Of a stretch of DNA of 64,000 bases, positions 2,485 through 52,123 are shown piece by piece (positions within the stretch are counted from its first letter, which is position 1; each line of letters begins with the position of its first letter). The notes below the pieces were generated by a model. That model did no database searches. It was not told the origin of the DNA and saw only the letters and a list, made by a program, of their open reading frames with translations. A program made the position numbers and the translations under genes. The DNA comes from Candidatus Omnitrophota bacterium (GTDB lineage Bacteria > Omnitrophota > Omnitrophia > Omnitrophales > Aquincolibacteriaceae): contig JAYTHE010000029.1 of NCBI GenBank assembly GCA_043732705.1, forward strand, positions 70,445 to 134,444, written 5' to 3'.

Positions 2485-3516
2485 TTACTCCTGTGTCGCG
2501 TTTGCCGTTTCGTTACTTGCGGCAGGCGCTTCAGAAGAAGCTTTGCCCGCGAGGCGCGCGTCCACGTCCATTCCGAGTGAAAGCTGCATCGTCACGAGAA
2601 TAGCATTAATTTCGTTCAGGGATTTTTTGCCGAAATTTTTGTACTTCAGCATTTGCGCTTCGGACTTACGGATCAAATCACCGATAGTCTTGATGTTCGC
2701 GGCCTCTAAACAATTAGCGCTGCGCACGGAAAGCTCAAGTTCGCTGATCGGTTTCGCAACCAAGTCACGGAACCCCTTATCTTCCTCTTCTTCCTCTTCC
2801 TCTTCTTCAGGAATTTCGCCATAGTTGACGAAAATATCGAGGTGGCGCTGAAGAATATTCGAAGCGTAAAGCATCGCTTCTTCAGGATTCATCGCACCAT
2901 TTGTCCAAATTTCGAACGTCAGCTTGTCATAGTCTGTCATTTGACCGACACGTGTGTCTTCAACATTGAAGTTCACTTTTATTACAGGCGAATAAATAGA
3001 GTCGACTGGAACAATTCCGATTGTATCGTCTTCTTTTTTATTTCGTTCAGCGGCAACATATCCACGGCCGCGGCCGATTTCAAGCTCCATTCTAAAAGGA
3101 CGGTCTTTTGAAAGTGTGCAGATCACAAGATCTTTATTCACAATTTCAACGGTTTCGTCAGCTTGAATATCACCCGCTGTAATAGGACCTTCTTTTTTTG
3201 CTTCAAGGATGAGCTTCTTGGCTCCTTTGCCGTGATACTTTAAAACTAACTTTTTGATATTAAGAACGATCTGTGTGCCATCTTCGTAAACGCCATCAAG
3301 CGTTGCGAATTCATGCAGCATCCCGTCAATCTTAATGCTCGTAACTGCAGCACCATCAATCGATGAAATTAAAACACGGCGCAAAGAATTGCCGATGGTT
3401 GTGCCATAACCACGTTCAAAAGGTTCAGCAACAAACTTACCGTATGTCTTGGTCAAAGTTGATTTTTCAACTTCCAGACGCTTTGGCAATTCAAAAGTTT
3501 TCCAACGAATACCCAT
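2485..3516 (-). CDS. rpoA: DNA-directed RNA polymerase alpha subunit (with poly-Glu linker insertion)
   Basis: 343 aa; alpha NTD/CTD motifs; position after rpsD and before rplQ. Confidence 0.95.
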   Translation of the reverse strand: MGIRWKTFELPKRLEVEKSTLTKTYGKFVAEPFERGYGTTIGNSLRRVLISSIDGAAVTSIKIDGMLHEFATLDGVYEDGTQIVLNIKKLVLKYHGKGAKKLILEAKKEGPITAGDIQADETVEIVNKDLVICTLSKDRPFRMELEIGRGRGYVAAERNKKEDDTIGIVPVDSIYSPVIKVNFNVEDTRVGQMTDYDKLTFEIWTNGAMNPEEAMLYASNILQRHLDIFVNYGEIPEEEEEEEEEDKGFRDLVAKPISELELSVRSANCLEAANIKTIGDLIRKSEAQMLKYKNFGKKSLNEINAILVTMQLSLGMDVDARLAGKASSEAPAASNETANATQE

Positions 3517-3540
3517 AACAAACCTCCTAGTACTATTAAA

Positions 3541-3568
3541 TTTTTGCTCTGAGGCTACGCCTCAATCG
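3541..3568. repeat. PE, inverted orientation (rpsD-rpoA spacer)
   Basis: tttttgctctgaggctacgcctcaatcg. Confidence 0.7.
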
Positions 3569-3615
3569 CACTGAAACTATCTAATCTTTTATTTAAAAAA
3601 TCTGTCCGCTCAAAA

Positions 3616-4242
3616 TTATTTAGAGTACAACTCAACAATCATCGACTCTTCAACTGGCAGATTCGCATCCGCTTTAGTCGGCTGACGAAGCACTTCGCCT
3701 TCTAACTTAGAAGCATTAAATGAAAGCCATTCTGGAATCTTCAGGTCATTCCATTTTTCCAAATAATCTTTCACGCGCTTTTGTGTTTTTTCTTTTTCTT
3801 TGACCGAAATTTTATCTCCGGGTTTGACCTGGTAAGAAGGAATGTTAACTTTCTTGCCATTCACTGTTACATGTCCGTGATTCACAAACTGACGTGCTTC
3901 ACGGCGTGTCGTCGCAAAAAGTAAACGGTATGTGACGTTATCCAAACGGCATTCAAGCCGGCGGATCAAATTTTCACCAGTCACGCCTTTTTCACGCGCG
4001 GCACGAACAAAGAAAAGATGAAATTGGCGTTCAAGCAAGCCATAAATTCTCTTCAACTTTTGCTTTTCACGAAACTGAACACCGTAGTCAGACTGCTTGC
4101 GTTGACGTCCTGCGCCATGCTGACCAGGTTTTTTGTCCAGACGCTTTGTGTGCTTATCATCCGTGTCACGGCGGCCTTTAAGCCCAAGATTAATCCCTTC
4201 TGCGCGATGAAGCCGGACAACCGGTCCAATATACTTAGCCAT
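3616..4242 (-). CDS. rpsD: 30S ribosomal protein S4
   Basis: MAKYIGPVVRLHRAEGINL... ; internal Met chosen so that the start abuts the rpsK stop (ORF-track start 4275 judged too long). Confidence 0.9.
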   Translation of the reverse strand: MAKYIGPVVRLHRAEGINLGLKGRRDTDDKHTKRLDKKPGQHGAGRQRKQSDYGVQFREKQKLKRIYGLLERQFHLFFVRAAREKGVTGENLIRRLECRLDNVTYRLLFATTRREARQFVNHGHVTVNGKKVNIPSYQVKPGDKISVKEKEKTQKRVKDYLEKWNDLKIPEWLSFNASKLEGEVLRQPTKADANLPVEESMIVELYSK

Positions 4243-4244
4243 GT

Positions 4245-4613
4245 TCAGACTCTCCTTTTCTTGGGAGGACGGCATCCATTGTGAGGTACCGGCGTAATGT
4301 CGGTAATTGAACTCACATTCAGACCCGCGAGCTGTAATGCACGAATCGCTGATTCACGCCCGCCGCCCGGACCCTTAATAAAAACTTCCACTTCTTTCAT
4401 GCCGAATTCCATCGCTTTTTTAGCCGCTTTTTCAGAAGCAACCTGTGCGGCAAACGGAGTGGATTTTTTTGAACCCGCAAAACCATTCGCACCGGAAGAA
4501 GACCAGCAAACTGTCTGCCCCTTCGGGTCAGAGATAGTCACAATCGTATTATTAAAACTTGCGAAAATATGCACTACACCTTTGGTCAAGTGCTTAATCT
4601 TTTTCTTAGCCAT
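4245..4613 (-). CDS. rpsK: 30S ribosomal protein S11
   Basis: [15 protein letters not shown] motif. Confidence 0.95.
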
Positions 4614-4636
4614 TCTGCATCACTCCTGTTGCGATT

Positions 4637-4670
4637 ATATTTTGCCTCTGAGCCTGACGGCTCAACCGGC
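4637..4670. repeat. PE, inverted orientation (rpsM-rpsK spacer)
   Basis: atattttgcctctgagcctgacggctcaaccggc. Confidence 0.8.
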
Positions 4671-4681
4671 AATCAACTAAA

Positions 4682-5065
4682 TTATTTAGCTACGGGTTTC
4701 TTCGTCAGCCCGCCGATTGTCTTGCGCTTACCCTTGCGAGTACGTGCGTTGGTATGCGTGCGCTGTCCGCGAACCGGAAGCCCTTTAAGATGTCTTAATC
4801 CGCGATAAGTGCGAATATCCATCAAACGCTTGATGTTCTGGTGAATATCACGGCGCAAATCACCTTCGATTTTGCAGTCGCGCTGAAGCACGCCTGTAAT
4901 TGCCGAAAGTTCTGCTTCCGTTAAATCTTTGGCGCGCTTATCAGGATCGACTTTCGCCTTTTCCAAAATTTTGTAGGAAAGCGTGCGGCCTACACCAAAC
5001 AAATACGTAAGAGAGATAAAAGTTTTTTTGTCTCTCGGAATATCGACACCCAAAATACGCGGCAT
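4682..5065 (-). CDS. rpsM: 30S ribosomal protein S13
   Basis: [14 protein letters not shown]... Confidence 0.95.
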
Positions 5066-5076
5066 AGTTTCTCCTG

Positions 5077-5190
5077 TTATCCTTGACGTTGCTTATGCTT
5101 CGGATTTGTGCAAATCACATAAACCCGACGCTCGCGTCTTACAATTTTACAATTTTCACAAATTCTTTTTACTGACGAACGTACTTTCAT
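5077..5190 (-). CDS. rpmJ: 50S ribosomal protein L36
   Basis: Manual translation [37 protein letters not shown] (Cys4 zinc ribbon); not in ORF track because <60 aa. Confidence 0.85.
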
Positions 5191-5237
5191 TTTAAACCCC
5201 TTAACCTAACTTATTTTATCTTTACCCAGGCAACCTG

Positions 5238-5268
5238 CCGATTGCGCCGGCGGCGCAGAGGCAAAATG
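5238..5268. repeat. PE (infA-rpmJ spacer), tail overlaps infA stop
   Basis: ccgattgcgccggcggcgcagaggcaaaatg. Confidence 0.75.
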
Positions 5269-5487
5269 TCATTTCACGCGGTAAGTAATTCGCCCGCGGC
5301 TTAAATCATACGGTGAAAGTTCCACCTTAACCGAATCTCCCGGTAAAATGCGGATATAATTCATACGCATTTTTCCCGAAATATGCGCAAGAATAATGTG
5401 CCCATTTTCAAGTTGAACACGAAAGCGAGCATTAGGCAGCGGTTCCACCACTTTACCTTCTACTTCAATCGCTTCTTCTTTGGCCAT
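5269..5487 (-). CDS. infA: translation initiation factor IF-1
   Basis: 72 aa, S1-like fold sequence [30 protein letters not shown]. Confidence 0.95.
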
Positions 5488-5539
5488 TATTCTTACTTAT
5501 CTCTCTGTTTCGGCGACTACAACAGTTAAAACTGCTTTG

Positions 5540-6325
5540 CTATTTGACGGTTGGGCATCGCCCAGAGCCAAAGTTGTAATAGCCGCCTGTTAAATTTATA
5601 AATCCGTTTTCCGTAAACGCTATCGTATCTTCATAATGGCTTGCCCAGGAACGGTCTTTCGTTACCACGGTCCAGCCATCCGCTAAAATCTGTACTTCAT
5701 GCGAACCCTGCGTCACCATCGGCTCAATCGCCAAAACTAACCCCGGCTCAATCTTTAACCCTCTGCCCGCTTTCCCATAATTTGGAACCTGCGGTTCTTC
5801 ATGCAAACTTTTTCCGATTCCGTGCCCGACAAAATCTCGCACAACACCGTAACCGCGTGATTCAATATGCGCTTGAATCGCTGCTGACAAATCACCGATT
5901 TGACAGCCCGGTTTATACGCTGCAAGTCCCGCTTCCATTCCACCTTTGGAAGCATCGATCAACTTCTGGGTTTTCGCATCGGCTCCGCCGACGCACCAGG
6001 ATCTTGCCGCATCCGAATAAAAACTTTTGTATATCACTCCAATATCAAAACTTACCAGGTCGCCTTTTTTCAACTTTTTATTTCCCGGAATTCCATGCAC
6101 CACTTCTTCGTTCACCGAGATGCAGGCTACCTTCGGAAAACCGCGATATCCTTTAAATGCGGATGTGCCGCCATTTGCACGAATTATTTTATCCGCAATC
6201 GCGTCCAAATCATTCGTTGTCGCGTTTTCCACAACCGTCGGCTGCACAGCGGCAAAGATCTTTTGTATGATCATCGCCGCTTCCTGCATAATTTCAATCT
6301 CGCGCTTAGATTTAAGCTCGATCAT
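5540..6325 (-). CDS. map: methionine aminopeptidase type I (C-terminal 10 aa encoded by a repeat element)
   Basis: 261 aa; metal-binding D/D/H/E/E motifs (FVGHGIG, LAIEPM); location between adk and infA. Confidence 0.9.
   Translation of the reverse strand: MIELKSKREIEIMQEAAMIIQKIFAAVQPTVVENATTNDLDAIADKIIRANGGTSAFKGYRGFPKVACISVNEEVVHGIPGNKKLKKGDLVSFDIGVIYKSFYSDAARSWCVGGADAKTQKLIDASKGGMEAGLAAYKPGCQIGDLSAAIQAHIESRGYGVVRDFVGHGIGKSLHEEPQVPNYGKAGRGLKIEPGLVLAIEPMVTQGSHEVQILADGWTVVTKDRSWASHYEDTIAFTENGFINLTGGYYNFGSGRCPTVK
5546..5580. repeat. PE inside map 3' coding end
   Basis: gacggttgggcatcgcccagagccaaagttgtaat encodes FGSGRCPTVK. Confidence 0.8.
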
Positions 6326-6981
6326 GCAATCAGACTGAGTTTTTCAAAGAGCTTCGTTATAATCGGCTGCAGTTCCGGAACGTCATAATCGCCCGGAATA
6401 TTTTGCAACAAACCACGTTTTTGATAAAAATTGATCAAAGGCGCTGTTTCATTCTGATAAACATTTAACCGGTTGCGAATCGTTTCCGGCGCGTCATCCT
6501 TGCGCTGAATTAACTTCTCGCCTGTATCATCACAAATACCTTCAACTTTCGGAGGCATATTGCGAATGTGATAAACGCGGCCCGTTGTCGGGTTAACGCG
6601 ACGGCCCGAGAGCCGCTCTAAAATTACTTTTTCCGACGTTTCAAAGTTTAAAACCAAATCCAACGGAATATTTTCTTTCTCAAGAAACTTTTCCAACGCT
6701 TCCGCTTGTCCGAGCGTGCGCGGGTAACCATCCAAAATAAAGCCTTTGCCGCTTGGAAGAGCATTAATCTCGGAAAACATCATTTCATTCACAAGATCAT
6801 CAGAAACTAATGCGCCTTTCTCAATCGTCGAACGCGCTTGAACGCCAAGCCCTGTGCCTTCTTTCATATGCCGCCGCAAAATATCGCCTGTCGCTAGCTG
6901 CGTTAGGTTATATTTGTCTTTCATCACTTTCGCGTGCGTACCTTTTCCCGCTCCCGGGGGGCCTAAAAGAACAATGCGCAT
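6322..6981 (-). CDS. adk: adenylate kinase (with zinc-lid CxxC...CDDTG)
   Basis: MRIVLLGPPGAGKGT P-loop; LID with C..C. Confidence 0.95.
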   Translation of the reverse strand: MRIVLLGPPGAGKGTHAKVMKDKYNLTQLATGDILRRHMKEGTGLGVQARSTIEKGALVSDDLVNEMMFSEINALPSGKGFILDGYPRTLGQAEALEKFLEKENIPLDLVLNFETSEKVILERLSGRRVNPTTGRVYHIRNMPPKVEGICDDTGEKLIQRKDDAPETIRNRLNVYQNETAPLINFYQKRGLLQNIPGDYDVPELQPIITKLFEKLSLIA

Positions 6982-8766: not shown

Positions 8767-8782
8767 AATTTTCTTACGCCTT

Positions 8783-8815
8783 TACGGTTGGGCGAAGCCC
8801 AGAGTGAAATATCAC
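8783..8815. repeat. PE (rpsE-rplO spacer; where rpmD would be)
   Basis: tacggttgggcgaagcccagagtgaaatatcac. Confidence 0.8.
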
Positions 8816-9405
8816 AGGCCTTCATAACCAACATCACTTTCTTCTTTTCGAAGGCGCTTATTCACAAGCGATTTTAAACCTTCTACAGTTGCTTTAAAAA
8901 CATTGACTGAGTTATCGCTGCCGAGACTCTTGGTCAAAATATCTTTGATTCCGCAAGATTCACAAACGGCACGAACCGCGCCGCCGGCAATAATTCCCGT
9001 TCCGGGAGCCGCCGGTTTCAAAAGCACTCTTGCTGCGCCGAAACGGCCGACAACTTCATGAGGTATCGTCGTCCCTTTCATAATAATCTTAATCGAACGC
9101 TTACGTGCGGCGGTGACAGCCTTGCGAATTGCATCCGCAACTTCGCCCGCTTTACCCTGGCCAAAACCAAGCTCGCCGTGGCCATTTCCGACCACAACAA
9201 GCGCGCTAAAACTAAAACGCTTACCACCCTTAACAACTTTGGAGGAACGGTTAATATCAACAACCTTTTCAAAATTAGTTGATTTAGCTTCCGGTGTAGA
9301 TCCGTCCAAAACATCCACAACTGCCAATGTCGCAACCGAAGGCACCGCCAAACGTTTTGCGCGTTCTGCTTCGGATTCTTTTTTTGCTTTCAACTTATCT
9401 GCCAT
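8812..9405 (-). CDS. rpsE: 30S ribosomal protein S5 (with ~35-aa N-terminal extension)
   Basis: S5 dsRBD and C-domain motifs ([29 protein letters not shown]); start chosen at MADKLK with SD; L30 gene absent downstream. Confidence 0.9.
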
Positions 9406-9420
9406 ATTTCCTTCTTTATT

Positions 9421-9512
9421 TCTGCTCTGGGTTTCACCCAACCGCAAATTTTATTTTCTTACTTTATGTCTATTCCGCCGGTTGAGCTAAAGCTCAGAGG
9501 CAAAATTAATAG
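9421..9512. repeat. PE x2, opposite orientations (rplR-rpsE spacer)
   Basis: tctgctctgggtttcacccaaccgc ... gccggttgagctaaagctcagaggcaaaattaat. Confidence 0.8.
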
Positions 9513-9513
9513 A

Positions 9514-9876
9514 TCAGAACTGTATTCCGCCTTCGCGCAATCCGTCGGCCAAGGCTTTGATGCGGCCATGATACAAGTATCCTGCACGATCAAAGCTAAT
9601 ACTCGAAATTCCTTTTTCCTTCATTTTTGCCGCATAAAACAGACCCAAATTTTTTGCCAAACCTGTTTTATCCGCATCTTTCGGAGCTTGCTTTAAAAAA
9701 GCTTTATCCTGTGTGGAAAAAGAAATCAATGTGCGCTGTGCAAAATCATCCACCACTTGAGCCTGAAGGCTGCGAGCCGAGCGATGAACTGACAAACGAG
9801 GACGTTCCGGTGTTCCGGAAATTTTTTTGCGAACGCGCACATGCCGATGTTGTCTGCCAAATTCTCTTGTATTCAT
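9514..9876 (-). CDS. rplR: 50S ribosomal protein L18
   Basis: 120 aa, RLSVHRSARSLQAQVVDD. Confidence 0.9.
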   Translation of the reverse strand: MNTREFGRQHRHVRVRKKISGTPERPRLSVHRSARSLQAQVVDDFAQRTLISFSTQDKAFLKQAPKDADKTGLAKNLGLFYAAKMKEKGISSISFDRAGYLYHGRIKALADGLREGGIQF

Positions 9877-9923
9877 AAATCAATCCTCTTCGATTCTAAA
9901 TTTTTGCTTAACGTTGCTGCTAA

Positions 9924-9958
9924 CGGCGGTTGCGCTTCAGCGCAGAGCCAAAACGTTA
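9924..9958. repeat. PE (rplF-rplR spacer)
   Basis: cggcggttgcgcttcagcgcagagccaaaacgtta. Confidence 0.85.
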
Positions 9959-10495
9959 ACTGCCGACTTTCTTACCTTGTTTGCGGCGCACTTGCTCGCC
10001 GACATAACGAATTCCCTTGCCCTTATACGGCTCCGGAGGACTAAAACTGCGAATTTCAGCGGCAGCTTGCCCCACCGACTGCTTATCTGCACCTGTAATA
10101 ACAATACGTGTTGGACTTGGACACTTGATATCAAGACCTTCTTCGATTTGGTAATCACTCGGGTGAGTAAAGCCAAGTACCATACTTAACACTTTACCCT
10201 TGATCGCCGCCTTAAAACCAACACCGATAAGCTCCAACTCTTTAACATATCCTTCAGTGACACCTTGAATCATATTACGAATGACTGCACGCGTTGTACC
10301 ATGCAAAGAGCGGTCAAGCGGCTCATCCGAAGAGCGGGTCACCACAACTTCTTTATCTTTTGATTCAACTTTGATTTTCGAGTGCACATCAAAATTAAGC
10401 TCCCCCTTAGGCCCCTTGACTTTGATCTTTTGACCCTGAATCGTAATTTGTACTTTATCCAGAACTGATACTGGTTTTCTTCCTACTCTCGACAT
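9956..10495 (-). CDS. rplF: 50S ribosomal protein L6
   Basis: MSRVGRKPVSV... Confidence 0.95.
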   Translation of the reverse strand: MSRVGRKPVSVLDKVQITIQGQKIKVKGPKGELNFDVHSKIKVESKDKEVVVTRSSDEPLDRSLHGTTRAVIRNMIQGVTEGYVKELELIGVGFKAAIKGKVLSMVLGFTHPSDYQIEEGLDIKCPSPTRIVITGADKQSVGQAAAEIRSFSPPEPYKGKGIRYVGEQVRRKQGKKVGS

Positions 10496-10537
10496 AATTC
10501 TTTTCCTTAAACTTTACTTAACCTTTTTAGCACTTAT

Positions 10538-10570
10538 ACGATTGCGCTTTAGCGCAGAGCAAAACAATAC
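10538..10570. repeat. PE (rpsH-rplF spacer)
   Basis: acgattgcgctttagcgcagagcaaaacaatac. Confidence 0.8.
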
Positions 10571-10578
10571 AGACAGCG

Positions 10579-10977
10579 TTACCAAACTGTGCAAATAAAT
10601 TCGCCGCCAACATTCATTTCTTTGGCCTGACGATCGGTCATAAGACCTTTTGAAGTCGAAACAATCGCGACGCCAAAACCACCCTGAACATGCGGAACTT
10701 TTTTAACACCAACATAGCGGCGCAATCCGGGAGTCGAAATACGGCGGATCCCCTGAATCGCAGGCTTGCGGCCTTTAACATATTTTAAATGAACGCGCAC
10801 AAACTTCTTGGCGCCTTCTTCAAAAACCTTCGAGCCTTGAATAAAACCTTCTTTTTCAAGGATCTCAAGAATCTTGACCGCAACGTTCGAAGAAGGAGTG
10901 GTGACCTTGTCCAAACGCGCCTGAGATGCATTGCGCAAAACCGTTAAAAAATCACCTACAAAATCACTTTGAGACAT
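10579..10977 (-). CDS. rpsH: 30S ribosomal protein S8
   Basis: 132 aa, DFVGDFLTVLRNA... Confidence 0.95.
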   Translation of the reverse strand: MSQSDFVGDFLTVLRNASQARLDKVTTPSSNVAVKILEILEKEGFIQGSKVFEEGAKKFVRVHLKYVKGRKPAIQGIRRISTPGLRRYVGVKKVPHVQGGFGVAIVSTSKGLMTDRQAKEMNVGGEFICTVW

Positions 10978-10994
10978 GCGTTCTTTTTCTCCTA

Positions 10995-11090
10995 TTGCGG
11001 TTGTGCGCCTTTAAGCGCACAGAGCCAAATATCACTAACTCGATTTAATTACCTTTTTGCGCTTAAGCGCAAAAGAGGCGAAAAATTACA
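10995..11090. repeat. PE x2 (rpsZ-rpsH spacer)
   Basis: ttgcggttgtgcgcctttaagcgcacagagccaaatatcac ; tttttgcgcttaagcgcaaaagaggcgaaaaattac. Confidence 0.8.
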
Positions 11091-11092
11091 GG

Positions 11093-11278
11093 TTACCAGC
11101 TCGAGCGAACAACGCCCGGAATTAATCCGTCGTTAGCAAGCTCGCGAAAGCAAATTCGGCAAACCTGATATTTACCAATATATCCGCGCGCGCGGCCGCA
11201 ACGCTGACAACGATTATATTTTTGAACTTTAAATTTGGGTGTGAGCCGTTGCTTGACAACTAAACAGGTCTTTGCCAT
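11093..11278 (-). CDS. rpsZ: 30S ribosomal protein S14 type Z (zinc-binding, 61 aa)
   Basis: [10 protein letters not shown]...CRICFRELA Cys4 motif. Confidence 0.9.
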
Positions 11279-11296
11279 GAAATTCTCTTCCTCTTA

Positions 11297-11917
11297 TTAT
11301 CTTTTTTTGAATGGAAAACCGAGAAGCTCCAAAAGCTTTTTGGCTTCCTGGTTATTCGTTGCCGTTGTCACAAAAGTCACGTCCATACCCTGGACTTTTT
11401 TAACTTTATCAAATTGAACCTCGGAAAAAACGGTTTGTTCCGTGATTCCGATCGAAAAATTTCCGCGGCCGTCAAAGCTTCGGTCCGAATATCCTTGAAA
11501 ATCGCGGATACGCGGCATCGCTAAATTGAACAAACGGTCCATAAATTCATACATGCGCGCTTTGCGGAGAGTTACTTTCAAACCGATCGGAGAGTTTTCG
11601 CGCAGTTTAAACGCGGAAATCGCCTTCTTGGCGCGGCGCACAACCGGCTTTTGTCCGGTGATCAAAGAAAGTTCTTCAGCACATTGCTCAAAAATCTTGA
11701 TATCGGAAGGGCCTTCTTTAATACCCATATTCACAACGATTTTTTGAAGCTTCGGAATCTGCATCTTGTTCTTATAGCCAAATTCTTTAGCAAGCTGCGG
11801 AGAAATTTCCGCATCATACTTCGCCTTCAATCGCGGCGTATAATTTGATTTCTCATTTATTTTTTTTGCCGGTTGAGCGGAGCGCTCAGAGGCAGATTTT
11901 TTATCGTCCGTTGCCAT
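11297..11917 (-). CDS. rplE: 50S ribosomal protein L5 (N-terminal ~25-aa extension containing a repeat element)
   Basis: L5 core KLQKIVVNMGIKEG...; ATG 11917 preceded by AGGAGAGG SD and overlaps rplX stop (TAATATG). Confidence 0.9.
   Translation of the reverse strand: MATDDKKSASERSAQPAKKINEKSNYTPRLKAKYDAEISPQLAKEFGYKNKMQIPKLQKIVVNMGIKEGPSDIKIFEQCAEELSLITGQKPVVRRAKKAISAFKLRENSPIGLKVTLRKARMYEFMDRLFNLAMPRIRDFQGYSDRSFDGRGNFSIGITEQTVFSEVQFDKVKKVQGMDVTFVTTATNNQEAKKLLELLGFPFKKR
11868..11907. repeat. PE inside rplE 5' coding extension (inverted orientation)
   Basis: gccggttgagcggagcgctcagaggcag encodes SASERSAQPA on minus strand. Confidence 0.8.
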
Positions 11918-11918
11918 A

Positions 11919-12227
11919 TTAGAAAACCTCTCCTGACTTTTTAGCCAAGCGCTGCTTAGTGCCGTCTGCAAGCCGTGAATATCCTACGCGGGTGGGCTTA
12001 CCAGAACGCGGGCAAATCAATTTCACGTTTGAAACATGAAGTTTGCCCTCGACTTTGGAAATTCCGCCTTTGGGATTATCCTGGCTCTTTCTTAAATACA
12101 CCGTTTGATAATTAATTTTTTCAACGAGCAATCCCTGCTGCGCTGAAAAAACACGCATCACTTTACCTTTTTTACCTTTATCTTTACCCGCAATAACGAG
12201 CACTTCATCGCCTTTTCTGATCTTCAT
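11919..12227 (-). CDS. rplX: 50S ribosomal protein L24
   Basis: MKIRKGDEVLVIAGKDKGKKG KOW motif. Confidence 0.9.
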   Translation of the reverse strand: MKIRKGDEVLVIAGKDKGKKGKVMRVFSAQQGLLVEKINYQTVYLRKSQDNPKGGISKVEGKLHVSNVKLICPRSGKPTRVGYSRLADGTKQRLAKKSGEVF

Positions 12228-12229
12228 GA

Positions 12230-12598
12230 CTACACAACCTCCGGAGCCAATGAAATAATTTTTGTGAATGCGCAGTCGCGAAGTTCACGCGCTACGGGAC
12301 CGAAAATGCGTGTTCCGCGAGGGTTCTTCGCATTATCGATCAAAACAATAGCATTCGACGAAAAACGAACCGTTGATCCGTCTTTGCGCTGAATCGGAAA
12401 ACGTGTACGAACTACAACCGCCTTAACAACCTCACCCTTTTTAACGGCGGAAGTGGGAATAGCTTCTTTAACCGCAGCGGTAATAATGTCGCCCACTTCG
12501 GCAACCAAAGTTCCATGGCGCCCGATAACACCGATCATCGAGGCTTTTTTTGCGCCGCTATTATCGGCAATATCAAGAATAGAACGAATCTGAATCAT
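12230..12598 (-). CDS. rplN: 50S ribosomal protein L14
   Basis: [18 protein letters not shown]; internal Met chosen over ORF-track start. Confidence 0.9.
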
Positions 12599-12852
12599 GC
12601 TGCCACCACTTTCGTCACGCGCCAACGCTTACTCTTGGATGTCGGACTTGTTTCAACGATATGAACCTTGTCACCGGTTTTTGAAATATTTTTCTCATCA
12701 TGCGCATAGCATTTGATCTGACGCGAAATAACTTTTTTATATTCAGAATGTTGAAAAACCTTGGTTACTTCAATAACGCGAGTCTTGTTCATTTTGTCGC
12801 TTGTAACGACACCTTCTAAAATACTAGCTGATTTTTTTACGGCTTCGGACAT
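12595..12852 (-). CDS. rpsQ: 30S ribosomal protein S17
   Basis: 85 aa, OB fold sequence. Confidence 0.9.
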
Positions 12853-12853
12853 A

Positions 12854-13150
12854 TTACGACGCGCTCCTGCTGGTTATATTTTTACTCTGGGTCTTCGACC
12901 CAACCGCGGCCTTGCTCTGAGACTTCGTCTCAGTCGCACTTTGTTGAGACTTTGTCTCAACTGCTTTTTGCTGATTCGCCACTGTTAGAACTCTTGCAAT
13001 ATCACGGCGCATTTCTTTAATCGTGGAATGTTTTTCCAGCTTGCCCAATTTCGCATCAAAACGAAGCTGCATGAGTTGCTTTTTCAGCTGTGTTTCTTTT
13101 TCCGCTAATTCTTCTTTGCTTAAATTTTGGTAATCAGCTACTTTTGCCAT
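12854..13150 (-). CDS. rpmC: 50S ribosomal protein L29 with ~35-aa C-terminal tail encoded by three palindromic repeat units
   Basis: MAKVADYQNLSKEELAEKETQLKKQLMQLRF L29 core; TAATATG junction with rplP; tail AVETKSQQSATETKSQSK... Confidence 0.85.
   Translation of the reverse strand: MAKVADYQNLSKEELAEKETQLKKQLMQLRFDAKLGKLEKHSTIKEMRRDIARVLTVANQQKAVETKSQQSATETKSQSKAAVGSKTQSKNITSRSAS
12876..12964. repeat. PE x3 forming the rpmC C-terminal tail
   Basis: tactctgggtcttcgacccaaccgcgg ; ctgagacttcgtctcag ; ttgagactttgtctcaa. Confidence 0.8.
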
Positions 13151-13151
13151 A

Positions 13152-13568
13152 TTAGATTCCTTCACGCTTCACAAATTTGGTCCGGAACGGGATTTTATGC
13201 GCGCAGAGGCGAAAGGCAGACTTCGCGAGCAATTCCGGAATTCCTGACATTTCAAAAATAATGCGTCCCGGTTTAATAACACAAACATAAAACTCAGGCG
13301 AACCTTTACCCTTACCCATACGAGTTTCGGGCGGACGCTTGGTATACGGCTTATCCGGAAAAGCACGCAGCCACAATTTACCACTGCGTTTGACGTGACG
13401 TGAAAGAGCCACACGCGCCGCTTCAATTTGAATTGCTGTCAAATAACCGCGGTCGATTGCCTTTAAAGCATAATCTCCGAACGCCAAGCTTGATCCGCGG
13501 GTAGCAACACCGCCCATGGACCCACGCTGCATTTTTCTATATTTGACACGTTTCGGCATTAACGACAT
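13152..13568 (-). CDS. rplP: 50S ribosomal protein L16
   Basis: [13 protein letters not shown]... Confidence 0.95.
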
Positions 13569-13585
13569 AAATTCCTTTTCTTCTT

Positions 13586-13620
13586 TTGCCGCTGAGCGTT
13601 AGCTCAGAGGCAAATATTAC
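13586..13620. repeat. PE (rpsC-rplP spacer)
   Basis: ttgccgctgagcgttagctcagaggcaaatattac. Confidence 0.8.
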
Positions 13621-13622
13621 CC

Positions 13623-14351
13623 TTAGGCTTTGACCGCTGCGGTATCCGCTGAAGCAGCCGCATTTACTTCAGCTTCTTTGCTTGCTTGAAGCTCACGCTC
13701 CAAACGTTTTTCAGCCTGTTCTTTCTTAACTAAAATATCACCCTTATAGATCCAAACTTTGCAACCGATGGTTCCGTAAGCCGTGAAAGCTTCAATAAAA
13801 CCATAGTCAACATCGGCGCGAAAAGTTTGAAGCGGAACCTTGCCTTCATGATACCCTTCAGCACGCGCGATTTCCGCGCCGCCCAAGCGTCCCTTAACCT
13901 GCATCTTAATTCCAAGCGCGCCTTTTTGCATGGCAAGCTGCATTGCGCGTTTCATCGCGCGACGAAAGCCAATACGTTTTTCAAGCTGCTGAGCTACGTT
14001 TTCAGCCACAAGCTGCGCGTCAATCTGCGGAACCTTAACTTCCTTAATATCCAAAAAGATTTCGTTTTTTGTAATCTTAGATACATCGTCTTTGATCTTG
14101 TCAATTTCTTGTCCGCGACGCCCGATGATAACGCCGGGTTTTGCGGCGAAAATTCTTACGCGCACGCGTCCCTGTGAACGTTCGATTTCAACGCTGGAAA
14201 TTCCAGCTGGCCCAAGTTTCTTTTTAATGTACGTACGGATTTTCAAATCCTCGTGCAATAAAACACCCGCATTTTTATTGGAAAACCAGCGGGCTTTCCA
14301 AGTGCGGATGTATCCTAATCTGATTCCGTACGGATGAACTTTCTGGCCCAA
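13623..14351 (-). CDS. rpsC: 30S ribosomal protein S3
   Basis: [13 protein letters not shown]..., KH domain. Confidence 0.95.
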
Positions 14352-17211: not shown

Positions 17212-17940
17212 CTATTTTTTTTCCGCTTCAGTTTTCTCAATCGCCGGTTGAGCAGAAGGCTCAGAGGCAGAATTCGACTGGGCCGAATGAACTAGCCAAG
17301 ACTTTGCTTTCCCTTTTTTCAGAGAATTCTTAATTACAAGATATCCGCCGTTATGCCCCGGAATACTCCCGCGGACAATTAAAACGCCCTGCTCTTCATC
17401 AGCATCGACCACAAAGCAATTTGATTTGGTAATAGTATCTGTACCCATATGTCCGGCCATTTTACGTCCGCGATAAGTGCGGCCCGGGGTCGAGTTTTGT
17501 CCGGTTGATCCGGCTTCGCGGCCAAACTTAGAACCATGAGCGGCTTCGCCGCCCTTAAAACCGTGGCGCTTAATAACACTTTGAAACCCTTTACCTTTGG
17601 AAACTCCGGTCACATCAATATAGTCACCTGCTTCAAATTGCTTCACGGAAAGCTGCGCGCCCAGCGTCAAACCTTCGAGTTTTTCCGAACGGATTTCACG
17701 GATAAAATGCATCGCGTCTTTAACGCCGGATTTCTTAATGTGACCCATGAGGGCCTTGCCCAAATTCTTTTCTTTTGCCTTGCCATAAGCAAGCTGAACA
17801 GCCTGATAACCGTCTTTTTCTTTGGTGCGAATCGCCGTTACATAGCAAGGCGAGCAATCCAAAACCGTGACCGGAATTTGGCGGCCATCTTCATCAAACA
17901 CCTGTGTCATTCCAACTTTTTTTCCGAGCAAACCAATCAT
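17212..17940 (-). CDS. rplC: 50S ribosomal protein L3
   Basis: MIGLLGKKVGMTQVFDEDG. Confidence 0.95.
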   Translation of the reverse strand: MIGLLGKKVGMTQVFDEDGRQIPVTVLDCSPCYVTAIRTKEKDGYQAVQLAYGKAKEKNLGKALMGHIKKSGVKDAMHFIREIRSEKLEGLTLGAQLSVKQFEAGDYIDVTGVSKGKGFQSVIKRHGFKGGEAAHGSKFGREAGSTGQNSTPGRTYRGRKMAGHMGTDTITKSNCFVVDADEEQGVLIVRGSIPGHNGGYLVIKNSLKKGKAKSWLVHSAQSNSASEPSAQPAIEKTEAEKK

Positions 17941-37002: not shown

Positions 37003-37828
37003 ACATATTGCCGGAGCTGCAGCAAATCATGAAGCAGTTCACGAAGCGCACGAGTTCCCCAACTTCATCCACTTACTTTCCGACCGCTTCCACGATTCCG
37101 CCATTTTGCATTTTATGCATCAGTGGGAAAACCTTTTTTTCTCAGGAACAATTTTAGTTCTCATTTCCTCCATCCTTTTGATTGCTGCTGCGCGTGACAC
37201 ATTGATTCCGGATGTTTTTCGAAATGCGGTCGAAGCGCTTGTCGAAGGCATTGAAAATTTCATTGTCAGCATCTTGGGCGAAGAAGGCCGCAAGCATGTT
37301 CCTTTTTTAGGCACAACTTTTCTTTATATCTTCTTCATGAATTACTGCGGGTTGTTTCCTTTTTTTAAATCTCCGACTTCTTCTTTAAACACTACGATTC
37401 CTTTGGCTTTGATTGCGGTTTGTTATATTCAATATTGGGGGCTTCGCGAACTAGGTTTTAAAAAATATTTACTGCATATCGCCGGCAGCCCGGAAGGCAT
37501 CGCCTCGTGGATCATCGGCGTCATTCTGCTTTTCCCGCTTAATATCATGCTTGAGTTCCTCGCTGTTCCATTAAGTTTATCCGTTCGTCTCTTCGCGAAC
37601 GTCTCGAGTGAAGACTCTTTGCTTTATCAATTTTCGCGCATTGTTTTGCGTTCATATTTATTCGCTTTTCCGCTGCAGCTTTTTGGAAATGCCCTCGCGT
37701 TTCTTTTCAGCGGAATTCAAGCTTTCGTTTTTACTTTGCTGACAACCGTTTATATCAAAGCCATGATGCCCGGTGAACATGGCCCCGAACACTCTGAGTC
37801 TTTGACTCAACCGGTATCGGGACATTAA
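36980..37828 (+). CDS. atpB: F0F1 ATP synthase subunit a
   Basis: conserved LSLSVRLFANV (essential Arg) motif. Confidence 0.85.
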   Translation: MTESIQSEHIAGAAANHEAVHEAHEFPNFIHLLSDRFHDSAILHFMHQWENLFFSGTILVLISSILLIAAARDTLIPDVFRNAVEALVEGIENFIVSILGEEGRKHVPFLGTTFLYIFFMNYCGLFPFFKSPTSSLNTTIPLALIAVCYIQYWGLRELGFKKYLLHIAGSPEGIASWIIGVILLFPLNIMLEFLAVPLSLSVRLFANVSSEDSLLYQFSRIVLRSYLFAFPLQLFGNALAFLFSGIQAFVFTLLTTVYIKAMMPGEHGPEHSESLTQPVSGH

Positions 37829-38124: not shown

Positions 38125-38610
38125 ATGAATATTGTTCCAGCAGAAATTTTAGTCCAGCTTGTCGCTTTTCTGATTGCGTTTTTCACGCTGAGAAAGTACG
38201 CGTGGATTCCGATGCAAAAATCACTCGCCGCGCGCCGTGACCACATCAAATGCAGTATTGAAGATGTGGAACGCGCTAAAGCCGAGATGGAAAAGCTGAA
38301 AGCGGAATACCAGGAACTTCTCAAGAGAATCGAAGATGAAGGCCGTATTAAAATGGCTGAAGTCGTCGAGGCCGGCCGCCTGATCGCGAAAGAGACCCAG
38401 GATAAAGCCCGTGAAGAAGCTCAGCGCACTTTTGATAAAACAAAAGCTGCGCTTGATTTGGAAGTCGCGAAAGCGCGCATCACCATGCGCCGTGAAATCG
38501 CCGATCTTTCGATTCATGTTGCTGAAAAAATTTTAGGCGATCATTTAAGTGACGGCAAACAGCGCGAAAAAGCTTCGCAGCTCGTAGATCAATTCGAAAA
38601 ATCATTATGA
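38125..38610 (+). CDS. atpF: F0F1 ATP synthase subunit b
   Basis: N-terminal TM + long charged helix. Confidence 0.85.
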   Translation: MNIVPAEILVQLVAFLIAFFTLRKYAWIPMQKSLAARRDHIKCSIEDVERAKAEMEKLKAEYQELLKRIEDEGRIKMAEVVEAGRLIAKETQDKAREEAQRTFDKTKAALDLEVAKARITMRREIADLSIHVAEKILGDHLSDGKQREKASQLVDQFEKSL

Positions 38611-39191
38611 AAGACGCAGGAATTATCGCCAAACGCTACGCGGAAGCCCTTTTCAACCTCTGCCTGAAGGAAAAGAACCTTGGGGTGGTTGAAAAGTCTT
38701 TTGATTCGTTTGTAAATGAAACCACGAAGAACACAACTTTCGTGCACTTCATGGAGAGCCCCGTGATTCCGCATAAAAGCAAAGAAGCTGTGCTTGAAAA
38801 AATTATTCCTCAAGGAATGCCGCCGCTCTTGGTGCTTTTTTTGAAACTGGTCCTGGCTAAAAAAAGGTTTGAAGTTTTGACTTTGATCGAAAAAACTTTT
38901 CAACAGCGCTCGGAACGCTATCGCGGTGTTCATCGGGCGGAATTAACCACGGCGGTTGCCGTGGAGCTCGCGGCAGAAAAAAAACTAACCGCACTGCTTG
39001 AAAAGAAATTTTCTCGAGAGAAAATTTCGGCTTCTGAGCCTTCGGCTCAACCGGAAGTTATTCTTACAAAAAAAGTTGATCCCAAAATATTGGGCGGATT
39101 TATTTTAAAATGGGATGAGCTCGTCGTTGATGCGAGCTATCAAACAAAATTACGCGAAATGAAGCAGCGGCTCTATGCCACCGCGATCTAA
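38607..39191 (+). CDS. atpH: F0F1 ATP synthase subunit delta
   Basis: position between b and alpha; OSCP-like length. Confidence 0.8.
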   Translation: MKDAGIIAKRYAEALFNLCLKEKNLGVVEKSFDSFVNETTKNTTFVHFMESPVIPHKSKEAVLEKIIPQGMPPLLVLFLKLVLAKKRFEVLTLIEKTFQQRSERYRGVHRAELTTAVAVELAAEKKLTALLEKKFSREKISASEPSAQPEVILTKKVDPKILGGFILKWDELVVDASYQTKLREMKQRLYATAI

Positions 39192-43337: not shown

Positions 43338-43451
43338 TATTTGCCTCTGCGTTGTTTTTTAGTCTCTGCGTTTCACGCAACCGACAATAAAAATAACGCA
43401 ATTGGCAAAAACAAATTCCGGTTGCGCTTTGGCGCAGAGGAAAAAGAATAC
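43336..43451. repeat. PE x3 (one half, one inverted, one direct) in atpD-atpC spacer
   Basis: atatttgcctctgcg ; gtctctgcgtttcacgcaaccgac ; tccggttgcgctttggcgcagaggaaaaagaatac. Confidence 0.8.
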
Positions 43452-44218: not shown

Positions 44219-44523
44219 CAACTATCCCTTCTGAATATTATTTAGTCTTGGCCGGCATTCTTTTTTCCATCGGTCTTTTCGGGATTTTACTGCGCCGTAA
44301 CATCCTGATTATTCTTTTGTGTCTGGAACTGATGCTGAATGCCGCAAATCTTGTTTTAGTCACCGCCTCTTCGGTTCATGGCCATACTGACGGCCAAATT
44401 ATGGCCTTTTTTGTGATGGTGATTGCCGCGGTGGAAGTCACTATCGGCCTCGCGATTGCTGTTTTACTTTTTAAAGAAAAAAATACCGTCGACACCGGAG
44501 AGATTACATCTCTCAAAGGTTAA
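44215..44523 (+). CDS. nuoK: NADH-quinone oxidoreductase subunit K
   Basis: 102 aa, LCLELMLNAANL motif. Confidence 0.9.
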   Translation: MTTIPSEYYLVLAGILFSIGLFGILLRRNILIILLCLELMLNAANLVLVTASSVHGHTDGQIMAFFVMVIAAVEVTIGLAIAVLLFKEKNTVDTGEITSLKG

Positions 44524-44615
44524 AACTTAAAAGTCAAAACTCAAAACCTAAAACTTGCTCGAACAACTTTGGGTTCCAAGCTATGGTTTTAAGATTTTAG
44601 ATTTAAATTTTGAGC
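44522..44615. repeat. ~90-bp palindromic MITE-like element (nuoK-nuoL spacer)
   Basis: aaaacttaaaagtcaaaactcaaaacc ... gctatggttttaagattttagatttaaatttt; arms mutually reverse-complementary. Confidence 0.6.
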
Positions 44616-44620
44616 TTATT

Positions 44621-46594
44621 ATGCTGAGTTTATGTTGGACAATTTTGGGATTGCCGCTTGCCGCTTCCGCGGTGATTTCGCTTTTATTAATTCCCGCCGA
44701 AAAGGCCGCTAAAGATAAACATTTTTTCCGCACAGCATCTGCCTTTTTGTCCGTTCTTTCGATGGCAGCCGCATTCGGCTTAAGTCTTTTGCTTCTGCAG
44801 AACTTCCGCAGCATTGAAAACCATAGCGAGGTTTTTGAAACTTCCCTGAATTGGATGACTTTACCGCAATTCCGGATTGAAATCGGTTTGCTTCTCAATA
44901 ATCTTACATTGCTGATGCTTTTAATTGTGACCGGCGTATCTTTACTCGTAGCACTATTCTCCTCCCGGTACATGAAAGGCGAAGAGGGCTATTCCCGTTA
45001 TTTTGCCGCGCTTTCTTTTTTTGCTTTTTCAATGCTCGGAATCGTGCTTTCCAATAATTTGATCCAGATTTTTATTTTTTGGGAATTGGTCGGTGTGGCT
45101 TCTTATCTTTTAATCGGTTTCTGGTTTGAAAAGCCTTCGGCCAGCATCGCATCAAAAAAAGCTTTTCTCGTAACGCGTATCGGTGACGTTGGCATGATGC
45201 TTGGCATTCTGCTTTTGCTCGGGCTATTACTCAAATCCGGCACTGGTACATTTAACTTTCTTGAGTTGGAAACAAGACTGCATCAGTCTGCTTTACCGGC
45301 CGGGCTTTTCACCTTGGCCTGCATTGGTATTTTTTTCGGAGCCGTTGGTAAATCGGCGCAGGTGCCTTTGCATGTTTGGCTGCCGGATGCGATGGAAGGT
45401 CCGACACCGGCCAGTGCATTAATCCACGCCGCGACCATGGTTGCTGCGGGCGTGTTCATGCTTGCCCGTCTTTTCTTTTTATTTGAAATGAGTCCAGTAA
45501 CACTGCAAATCATAGCTTGGACCGGTATTATCACCGCTTTTCTCGCGGCATCCATTGCTGTTGTTCAAAATGACATTAAAAAGGTACTCGCCTACTCCAC
45601 GCTTTCGCAGCTGGGATATATGGTCATGGCCGTCGGCCTTAAAAACCCCGAAGCCGGAATGTTTCATTTAACAACCCACGCTTTTTTCAAAGCCTTGCTC
45701 TTTCTTGGCGCCGGCAGTTTGATCCATGCTCTGCACACGCAGGATATATGGGAGATGTCGGCACTGGTCCGTTCCGACCAAAGTCATTCTGCCTCTGCGT
45801 CTTCGACGCAACCGGCACATCGCAGCTGGCTAAAAACTATTCCTATCACAGGTCTTACTTTTCTAATCGGAACTGCCGCGCTTGCAGGGCTTCCTTTTAC
45901 GAGCGGTTTTTTCAGCAAAGAAGAAATTCTCGGTGCGGCTTCGACCGGTCCCCGCATTGTTTTTGGAATGGCACTTGCGGTTGTTTTTCTGACAGCTTTC
46001 TACATGGGCCGCGCTGTTACAATTATCTTCTGGAGCTCCGCTCCAACCAGACACCCTCAAAAACATGTGGAAATACATGAAGATAATTGGATGATTACTG
46101 TTCCGCTGCTTATCCTCGCTGTTTTTTCTTTAATTGCCGGCTATTTACCTTTCAAATCATTTTTAGAGAATCAAACAGCGCATGCTGAAATTCATCCGCA
46201 GTGGCTGGCTGCGGCTTCAGTCACCCTTGCTTGCTGCGGACTTTTACTCAGTTTTGTTCTTTACCGCCGGTCTTCTTCGCCTCTGAGCCAAGGGCTCAAC
46301 CGGAAAAACCTCCTAACTCAACTCGTCACATTTCTTAAAGAAAAATATTATTTCGATAAATTCTATGACTGGTTCATCATTCATGTTCAGGAAAATATCG
46401 CGCGTGCCGCGGACAACTTCGAACGTGTCGTGCTTGAACGCGGCGGCAATCAAGGTTTGGCGGGTTTAACGCAATTTCTGGGAAATACAGCGCGTAAATT
46501 ACAAAACGGCTGGATCCAAAGCTATGCTCTTGTTTTCGCAATCGGCTTTATTGCATTGGTTGCTTATCTTGTATTTTGCGGAGCAAAGTTATGA
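44621..46594 (+). CDS. nuoL: NADH-quinone oxidoreductase subunit L
   Basis: WLPDAMEGPTPASALIHAATMVAAG motif; start moved to ATG 44621 after the MITE-like spacer element. Confidence 0.9.
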   Translation: MLSLCWTILGLPLAASAVISLLLIPAEKAAKDKHFFRTASAFLSVLSMAAAFGLSLLLLQNFRSIENHSEVFETSLNWMTLPQFRIEIGLLLNNLTLLMLLIVTGVSLLVALFSSRYMKGEEGYSRYFAALSFFAFSMLGIVLSNNLIQIFIFWELVGVASYLLIGFWFEKPSASIASKKAFLVTRIGDVGMMLGILLLLGLLLKSGTGTFNFLELETRLHQSALPAGLFTLACIGIFFGAVGKSAQVPLHVWLPDAMEGPTPASALIHAATMVAAGVFMLARLFFLFEMSPVTLQIIAWTGIITAFLAASIAVVQNDIKKVLAYSTLSQLGYMVMAVGLKNPEAGMFHLTTHAFFKALLFLGAGSLIHALHTQDIWEMSALVRSDQSHSASASSTQPAHRSWLKTIPITGLTFLIGTAALAGLPFTSGFFSKEEILGAASTGPRIVFGMALAVVFLTAFYMGRAVTIIFWSSAPTRHPQKHVEIHEDNWMITVPLLILAVFSLIAGYLPFKSFLENQTAHAEIHPQWLAAASVTLACCGLLLSFVLYRRSSSPLSQGLNRKNLLTQLVTFLKEKYYFDKFYDWFIIHVQENIARAADNFERVVLERGGNQGLAGLTQFLGNTARKLQNGWIQSYALVFAIGFIALVAYLVFCGAKL

Positions 46595-51571: not shown

Positions 51572-51670
51572 CAAAGGTTAAAAGTAAAATCTGAAAATAT
51601 AACTTAAAGGCCAAAATTATCCGGACAGTTTTTATTTTTGGGCTATGGTTTTAATCTTTAAGATTTAACC
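51572..51670. repeat. left ~100-bp inverted repeat flanking EVE gene (MITE-like family)
   Basis: ...ataacttaaaggccaaaattatccggacagtttttatttttgggctatggttttaatctttaagatttaacc. Confidence 0.7.
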
Positions 51671-52119
51671 TCTAACCTAGTAATAATTTGCCAATGTTTT
51701 TCGGAAACAGGCTGTACAGAAAGCCGGCTGCCTTTTTGTAAAAGCAGCATTCCCTCAAGCCCTGTCATTTTTTTAAGCTCTTCCAAAGATAAAAAACGTT
51801 TAAATTTTTTTACGAAATTTAGATCCACAAGATACCAAGTCGGATTTTCTTTTTTACTTTTGGGATCATAATGCACATCTTTTTTATCAAACGCCGTGGG
51901 GTCAGGATAAGGTTTCCCCGCGACTTTGGCAATGCCGGCAATACCTGATGGCTCAGCATTTGAATAATAAAAGAAAACAAGATCCCCTGGTTTCATTTGA
52001 TCGCGCATAAAATTACGCGCTTGATAATTGCGCACGCCGTCCCACATCGTTTTACCGTCACGGGCAAGATCCTCTATGGAATATACATCCGGCTCGGACT
52101 TCATCAGCCAATAATTCAT
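51658..52119 (-). CDS. EVE (PUA-like) domain protein
   Basis: MNYWLMKSEPDVYSIEDL...WDGVRNYQARNFMR typical EVE N-terminus; flanked by ~105-bp inverted repeats. Confidence 0.8.
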   Translation of the reverse strand: MNYWLMKSEPDVYSIEDLARDGKTMWDGVRNYQARNFMRDQMKPGDLVFFYYSNAEPSGIAGIAKVAGKPYPDPTAFDKKDVHYDPKSKKENPTWYLVDLNFVKKFKRFLSLEELKKMTGLEGMLLLQKGSRLSVQPVSEKHWQIITRLEVKS

Positions 52120-52123
52120 AACA

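Follow-up and report, generated by a model that had tools for sequence, protein, structure and literature searches.

The DNA considered here, referred to as the window, is a 64,000-nucleotide (nt) stretch of Candidatus Omnitrophota contig JAYTHE010000029.1 (positions 70,445 to 134,444), and the gene in question is rplE, which encodes ribosomal protein uL5 on the minus strand at 11297..11917 (206 codons and a stop). The first codons of rplE contain a palindromic sequence that, with a probability we estimate from sequence comparison at roughly 85%, is a copy of a clade-restricted dispersed hairpin repeat lying in frame and translated from the ancestral ATG at 11917 into an N-terminal tail of uL5.

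The rplE frame is open down to 11297 and its product begins MATDDKKSASERSAQPAKKINEKSNYTPRLKAKY...; an identical 206-amino-acid (aa) product occurs in public collections (P0001). Both domain content and gene order identify the product as uL5: Pfam places Ribosomal_L5 at residues 50-106 and Ribosomal_L5_C at residues 110-203 (8.9e-24 and 1.2e-37, respectively), and the gene has rplX and rpsN as its spc operon neighbours, in a part of the window where all ribosomal protein genes are on the minus strand. A sequence-only reading of this DNA had assigned the start to the ATG at 11917 on the strength of a good Shine-Dalgarno (SD) sequence and a TAATATG junction with rplX, and direct inspection of the sequence bears this out. 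The SD sequence AGGAGAGG (11927..11934, minus strand) lies inside the last rplX codons at a distance of 9 nt from the ATG (11915..11917), and the rplX stop TAA (11919..11921) is followed by one T and then the ATG (TAAtATG), which leaves the two genes without a spacer. The same reading had held that no in-frame start occurs downstream before the conserved uL5 core, and this is likewise correct, since no in-frame ATG, GTG or TTG lies between the ATG and codon 30, and the TTG at codon 30 (11828..11830), the sole canonical in-frame start downstream, is already within the core as the Leu of RLKAKY.

The hairpin copy in rplE occupies 11862..11901 on the minus strand in sense orientation, scores 41.4 bits (E = 2e-10) against the covariance model of the repeat (repeat family D3), and is read K-S-A-S-E-R-S-A-Q-P-A-K. 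Folding predicts an inner stem formed by UGAGCG (11883..11888) and CGCUCA (11874..11879) around the loop CUC (11880-11882), and an outer stem, which covaries across copies, formed by UGCC (11891..11894) and GGCA (11867..11870), with internal loops UC (11889-11890) and ACC (11871-11873) between the two stems. As mRNA this hairpin has a folding energy of -13.0 kcal/mol (z = -4.6) and occupies positions +24 to +51 in the coding sequence (CDS). The sequence-only reading had described a palindromic element translated as SASERSAQPA, and codons 8-17 of rplE, encoded by the hairpin repeat, do specify these residues; its description of the element as inverted did not stand, because the copy is in sense orientation like 32/40 copies in the window, and the coordinates it gave (11868-11907) are corrected to 11862-11901 for the element proper, the palindrome string that it quoted (GCCGGTTGAGCGGAGCGCTCAGAGGCAG) being the plus strand of 11868-11895. 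The rplE copy also fits a pattern defined by the repeat flanks only (CTCTG N7-22 CAACCG), and it retains the T-run of the repeat only in part (AAATCTGC vs TATTTTGC). It falls within a lineage-specific N-terminal segment comprising codons 4-25 (DDKKSASERSAQPAKKINEKSN; about 11843..11908), by which rplE is 54-60 nt longer in the alignment than in relatives without the insert.

The repeat to which this copy belongs is abundant in the window. A covariance model trained on 35 copies, the rplE copy among them, detected 40 copies at E<1e-4, 5 of which were new beyond the training set, and a search with the flanks alone (CTCTG N7-22 CAACCG) returned 33 matches vs 0.18 expected, with a stem between the flanks in 33/33. 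The consensus in mRNA sense is tATTTTG(G/C)-C-TC-TGNGC-loop-GCNCA-ACC-G-(C/G)-a-A, with a core of ~40 nt. Of the cells, 86% were paired, vs 71% after shuffling and 31-44% when the partner columns were slid, and both stems covary. The outer stem provides the unbiased test of covariation, because copies had been chosen for pairing of the inner stem and the outer stem was not used for picking them; here double changes were present in 4/5 pairs (G-C, C-G, A-U, U-A). Read in mRNA sense, pairs of the G.U type numbered 21 vs 7 of the A.C type. Rfam left the repeat unmatched, both in the whole window at gathering thresholds and in 9350-13700 at E values up to 5, where only tRNAs and chance matches were returned, and we found no description of this hairpin family in the full-text literature on Omnitrophota repeats and palindromes. 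The possibility that the hairpin is an intrinsic terminator was rejected because the U-tract lies on the wrong side: in sense the T-run precedes the hairpin, while the antisense orientation has an A-run after it. Matches to the model were confined to loci whose uL5 core is >=86% identical to that of the window, and 21 more distant Omnitrophota loci contained none. Separately, a high-GC viral contig (L185, IMGVR_UViG_3300043331_000358) carries three weak same-strand matches of 20-22 bits at 3190-6805 that probably represent an unrelated hairpin family; a pattern scan of viral contigs otherwise gave only single, chance-like matches.

Comparison of the uL5 N-termini of relatives, which the sequence-only reading had proposed as a check on the start codon, supports the ATG at 11917. 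The closest uL5 matches are named Candidatus Omnitrophota, and we aligned eight loci (the window, L081, L001, L083, L084, L002, L003 and L004). The junction tcaGGAGAGGttttcTAAnATGgcaac is conserved to the nucleotide in 8/8 of these loci, with or without the insert, the SD columns are invariant, and the start itself is conserved as ATG-GCA-AC in L001-L004, L081, L083 and L084. Near relatives have uL5 proteins of 186-189 aa that begin MATAQ(E/D)KYTPRLK or MATDKYVPRLK, and the MAT N-terminus is found in nearly all of them. Six lineages (L002, L086, L003, L004, L087 and L088) have no insert and show a short N-terminus, MATAQEKYTPRLK or MATDKY; in L002, L003 and L004 the core follows directly after ATG GCA ACN, and in relatives without the insert the ATG before MATAQEKYTPRLK is the only available start. 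Five lineages (the window, L081, L001, L084 and L083) carry an insert at the same place, with N-termini of the pattern MATD...NY and an L24-to-L5 gap of 1 nt at every locus, and the frame is kept in all five despite insert lengths of about +54-60, +99, +42 and +30 nt over the short form. Because the junction is conserved with and without the insert and no lineage has lost the frame, the ATG is ancestral and the insert appears to be translated, which agrees with the earlier claim that the element has been absorbed into the uL5 coding sequence.

The inserts themselves range from intact to decayed. The protein encoded by L081 (P0002, 206 aa, MATDDKKLAPEHSVQPAKKANMKSNY..) has the same insert as the window, P0003 (MATTDKNKSSSQAAAGNY..) and its close variants P0006 and P0008 have 199 aa, and P0010 has 207 aa (MVTDSNKKTSAGSPQSATNKY..). 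Two tandem elements are read in the same frame in L001 (KASETASQPATSNIKASGTSSQPAKKNINLKS), L084 carries, likewise in that frame, the hairpin TGCGG-GTTCA-CCGCA, whose flanks have decayed, and L083 keeps only a decayed remnant without a hairpin. A metagenome scan for further insert-bearing rplE genes returned three close loci, all without the insert. Relationships among the lineages were examined with a five-protein neighbour-joining (NJ) tree that includes outgroups and with a bootstrapped NJ tree of 1,794 nt of DNA rooted on L084, the earliest branch of the group in the protein tree; L081 was too short to place. The clades (window, L001), (L002, L086) and (L003, L004, L087, L088) are firm, and support at deep nodes is 37-74%. 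In L002 and L086 the N-terminus, MATD-KY, has the look of MATD..NY after a deletion.

Filled and empty sites also occur at other junctions of the ribosomal operon. The S14/S8 gap measures 86-132 nt when filled and 17-18 nt when empty, the L6/L18 gap 72-84 nt and 5-8 nt (29-38 nt in three loci), and the S19/L22 gap 82-87 nt and 19-23 nt, respectively. At S5/L15 the two genes overlap by 4-11 nt when the site is empty and are 45 nt apart when it is filled; in the window, whose rpsE/rplO copy spans 8777-8814, and in L001, S5 has acquired a new C-terminus, ..ESDVGYEGL, and a new TGA stop immediately before the element leader. A nested insertion is present at 43338-43410, where an outer copy (GCC-TC-TGCGTT...AACGCA-ATT-GGC) holds a second complete copy in its loop; the nested structure folds at -26.3 kcal/mol (z = -4.8) and, together with the copy at 43411-43449, fills the atpD/atpC spacer. 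To judge from these sites, the repeat family behaves as insertional DNA. Of its copies, 31/40 are intergenic and 9/40 lie inside reading frames, and the core begins 4-19 nt past the upstream stop codon in 17/24 sense intergenic copies, compared with 27 nt past the rplX stop for the rplE copy. The predominance of copies in sense to the local genes (32/40) is significant (binomial p = 1.8e-4). At about 35 kb, where the gene strand changes, copy orientation changes with it; GC skew stays <=0 along the whole window, a pattern suggesting that orientation is tied to transcription and not to replication.

The nine in-frame copies fall in uL5, uL3, uL29, ATP synthase delta, ATP synthase a, a NuoL-like protein (two), methionine aminopeptidase and an aminotransferase. 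In uL3 (rplC, 17212..17940, minus strand) the C-terminal tail includes a canonical sense copy at 17237-17276, read SASEPSAQPA, near-identical to the uL5 peptide; the uL3 tail of L003 and L004 is a decayed version of this copy (SESASASPAQEAA), and either the window copy has been refreshed or those of the relatives have decayed. In uL29 (rpmC, minus strand) three tandem antisense copies at 12854-12965 encode a 33-residue insertion, AVETKSQQS-ATETKSQSK-AAVGSKTQSK-NITS, just before the conserved C-terminal RSAS and stop. One of these three is among the 40 and the other two are weaker model matches; uL29 is 98 aa long here, 65 aa in L003, L004, L084 and L087, and 78-79 aa, with one copy, in L083 and L086. 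According to Pfam, the copy at 39022-39061 (KISASEPSAQPEV) in the atpH-like open reading frame (ORF; 38607..39191, plus strand) lies truly within the OSCP domain of the ATP synthase delta subunit. The NuoL/Mrp-like membrane subunit (44555..46594, plus strand) has copies at 45783-45822 and 46271-46310 and a weak one at 46018-46057; these are read in two frames (HSASASSTQPAH and SSPLSQGLNRK), at least one of them inside Proton_antipo_M and another further downstream. Sense copies also supply the last residues of ATP synthase a (37782-37821, HSESLTQPVSGH and stop), methionine aminopeptidase (5540-5577, NFGSGRCPTVK and stop) and the aminotransferase (540-578, ILPLRQGATGTHA and stop). Since copies lie inside OSCP and Proton_antipo_M and ahead of RSAS in uL29, translation through the element appears to be common in this genome. 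In the four sense copies read in the rplE frame (uL5, uL3, AtpH and NuoL-like), the consensus Phe codon TTT has become TCT or TCG (Ser), and the T-run is intact in 2/8 sense copies within CDS vs ~24/31 intergenic copies (Fisher p = 0.006 computed at 25/31, a count that includes the mis-registered copy 9415, and expected to be slightly weaker at 24/31); T-run loss and the change from Phe to Ser in translated copies are a sign of protein-level selection.

The tail is free of constraint on its amino acid sequence. Because the window and L081 align collinearly, their codon differences could be counted directly: over 181 core codons there were 85 synonymous and 9 non-synonymous changes, and over the 22 codons of the insert 3 and 6, respectively, giving non-synonymous/synonymous ratios of ~0.1 in the core and ~2 in the tail. 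With 6:3 non-synonymous to synonymous changes against 9:85 in the core, the tail peptide is unconstrained. Residues 1-24 are predicted to be disordered, AlphaFold2 (29 homologues) giving them a predicted local distance difference test score (pLDDT) <50 and no secondary structure, and placing the first helix from residue 29. The course of events that we favour is as follows. Whereas copies would normally settle 4-19 nt past a stop codon, a copy arriving 27 nt past the rplX stop would have fallen into the first rplE codons and become coding because rplX and rplE have no spacer, and in an essential gene presumably only an in-frame, stop-free version could survive. Translation would start at the ATG at 11917, coupled to rplX through TAAtATG, and read through the element, yielding a uL5 whose N-terminus bears a tail of 18-20 residues with abundant Lys, Ser and Ala. 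N-terminally extended uL5 proteins recur in other lineages, which may be why such a tail is tolerated. Selection may then have turned the leader hydrophilic and A-rich (consensus TAT-TTT to AAA-TCT). The hairpin may keep a role at the RNA level, although none is needed to explain the data.

Several observations weigh against this interpretation. When filled and empty sites were aligned no target-site duplication was visible, so mobility is deduced solely from presence/absence and nesting, and a Pfam scan of 20 ORFs of the window, to which the result is confined, revealed no transposase or REP-associated tyrosine transposase (RAYT). The trees do not separate one old insertion followed by at least two losses from repeated gains at the same site, and with the deep nodes poorly supported the insert pattern requires one or the other. 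Every compared sequence is a metagenome-assembled genome (MAG) or a metagenome contig. Finally, the insert is 80% identical to that of L081 at the nucleotide level, no lower than the core, though the core changes are nearly all silent. This identity hints at nucleotide-level constraint or at gene conversion from other copies, which a purely junk origin would not predict.

The last of these points bears on the possibility that the hairpin has been kept in early rplE as a working RNA, either as an intercistronic processing or stability signal or as a brake on coupling to rplX, with the peptide as a by-product. We consider this unlikely, though it accounts for a number of observations: the sense bias with its flip at the change of gene strand while GC skew stays <=0, the excess of G.U-type over A.C-type pairs in mRNA sense, and the rate of divergence of the insert. 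Between the window and L081 the inner stem shows two changes, one compensatory (G-C to A-U) and one from G-C to G.U, a pair that only the mRNA sense accepts, and the loop shows one; 4 of the affected codons change amino acid. The architecture is kept in the window (-13.0 kcal/mol), L081 (-8.7 kcal/mol) and the second L001 copy (-12.7 kcal/mol), and L084 also has a hairpin (-10.2 kcal/mol), so that it persists in 3 or 4 of the 5 insert-bearing lineages; however, L083 has no hairpin left and the first L001 copy has a weak one (folding not significant in either), and the whole insert is absent from six close lineages. Template switching during repair of palindromes, or conversion from other copies, can produce compensatory changes without selection, and the lack of an Rfam match likewise speaks against an RNA function. 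A broader form of the idea, which we advance only tentatively and with the odds against it, is that the repeat as a whole is a previously undescribed transcription-oriented RNA hairpin module at cistron boundaries of highly expressed operons (ribosomal proteins, rpoBC, ATP synthase) that sets processing, stability or translational coupling, and that selection on RNA structure keeps it within the CDS where cistrons abut (rplX/rplE, L29/S17, S5/L15) as the peptide drifts. If so, the rplE copy would be a regulatory hairpin that an essential gene carries in its first 17 codons.

It is improbable that the tail instead serves the ribosome as an adaptive addition to uL5, for example through a further contact to rRNA or protein, its origin from a repeat being incidental. 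Other Omnitrophota do have uL5 proteins whose N-termini are extended by unrelated Lys/Glu/Pro-rich sequences (P0090, P0109), the tail has a basic, hydrophilic composition, and the replacement of the consensus Phe codon by Ser in the four in-frame copies would fit such a function. The ratio of ~2 in the tail vs ~0.1 in the core points the other way, as do the predicted disorder, the differences in length and sequence in every lineage and the absence of the tail from sister lineages.

Still less probable is a start downstream of the element, at the TTG at 11830 or at some non-canonical codon, for example the ATA at codon 20, which would leave the element in a rplX-rplE spacer that is open by chance. 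The rplE core does lie 27 nt past the rplX stop, near the usual intergenic distance of the repeat, and L081 (283-903, P0002) has an in-frame ATG at codon 22 (..KKANMKSNYTPRLK), GAG in the window; this codon has no obvious SD and could be due to chance or be an internal start now emerging downstream of the element. The ATG, SD and MAT are conserved, however, in relatives in which that ATG is the only possible start, the frame has survived inserts of differing length in five lineages, the alternative codons have no preceding SD, and translation of other family members is unavoidable. Codon 30 in particular is not a conserved start, because it reads TTG in the window, L001 and L004, CTT in L081 and L002, TTA in L083 and CTG in L084 and L003, the CTT of L081 accompanying the same insert as in the window; initiation at this Leu30 would also delete the conserved YTPR. 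That the in-frame element is an artefact of assembly or binning, as might be suspected of a metagenome-assembled contig, can be practically dismissed, given that the insert recurs in independent assemblies (P0002 in two ENA samples, L001, and L084 and L085).

Among known systems, an in-frame insertion of this kind is most like the Rickettsia palindromic elements, dispersed palindromic repeats that lie in frame within protein-coding genes, including housekeeping genes, whose host protein is kept, and 44 insertions of which occur in R. conorii, nearly half of them within ORFs (PMC10969869). Both add a peptide segment and are polymorphic among relatives. The Rickettsia elements differ in being ~100-150 bp long with conserved peptides of 30-50 aa and in occurring in Alphaproteobacteria, whereas here the core is ~40 nt, the inserts are 54-100 nt, the peptide is unconserved and the host belongs to Omnitrophota; moreover, 31/40 copies are intergenic, many of them just past stop codons. 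No sequence relationship is expected. The repeat family also resembles repetitive extragenic palindromic (REP) sequences or MITEs (transposable elements of the miniature inverted-repeat type). Like REPs and the REP doublets termed REPINs, which RAYTs mobilise and which are imperfect palindromes of 20-40 nt in high copy at intercistronic and 3' operon sites and inherited within narrow clades (PMC3116915, PMC3337134), it includes occasional inverted pairs (9415/9471 and 43354/43411). In these pairs and in 29937/29959 each copy folds alone, with no single long REPIN hairpin, and one such pair is a nested insertion. REPs are extragenic by definition, conserved in sequence and headed by GTAG; here, 9/40 copies are translated, the stems vary by compensatory changes, GTAG is absent, the flanks are TTTTGG-CTCTG and CAACCG-C, and the bias to the sense strand is strong. 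The hairpin arms could count as the terminal inverted repeats of a MITE, although aligned sites show no target-site duplication. E. coli REPs place a hairpin within ~15 nt of the stop codon, comparable to the 17/24 sense intergenic copies here; the rplE copy differs in following a start codon as well as a stop. Mycobacterial interspersed repetitive units (MIRUs) are short intercistronic repeats oriented with transcription whose frames join or overlap flanking stop and start codons, as here, but they are direct tandem repeats of 46-100 bp rather than hairpins, and we know of no report of them inside conserved domains. On sequence grounds we regard the repeat as a new family that behaves as in-frame Rickettsia palindromic elements at REP size.

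Outside Rickettsia and in an uncultivated phylum, then, a REP-sized hairpin repeat would have been absorbed into proteins that are very highly conserved (uL5, uL3, uL29, ATP synthase delta and a, and a NuoL-like subunit), creating new peptide segments. Because copies are polymorphic among close relatives, they provide, as filled, empty, decayed and duplicated sites, a natural series in which the origin and shaping of junk peptide tails, for example by Phe-to-Ser changes, could be studied. The repeat would also explain odd gene lengths and doubtful start codons in MAG annotation and offers strain-level markers, and the roughly 40 hairpins identified, placed a few bases past stop codons, are candidates for an influence on operon expression.

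Other features of the window were recorded as well. The uL17 encoded by rplQ (1826-2377) has 183 aa; its Pfam domain ends at residue 115 and is followed by a ~65-residue Lys/Ala/Glu-rich C-terminal extension, in which no hairpin-repeat origin was seen. A giant ORF of 3,378 codons at 53833-63969 on the minus strand has essentially zero hairpin-repeat copies and contains a 196-nt direct repeat (60131-60326 and 60653-60848, 89% identical). At 51573-52228, a 153-aa ORF (51658..52119, minus strand) lies between 116-nt inverted repeats (51573-51688 and 52113-52228, 78% complementary); its assignment as a Y1 transposase was rejected, as Pfam identifies it as an EVE-domain protein (E = 7e-61). A second short repeat family (CTCAAAGGTTAAAA...) is found in this same segment and at 44512-44554.

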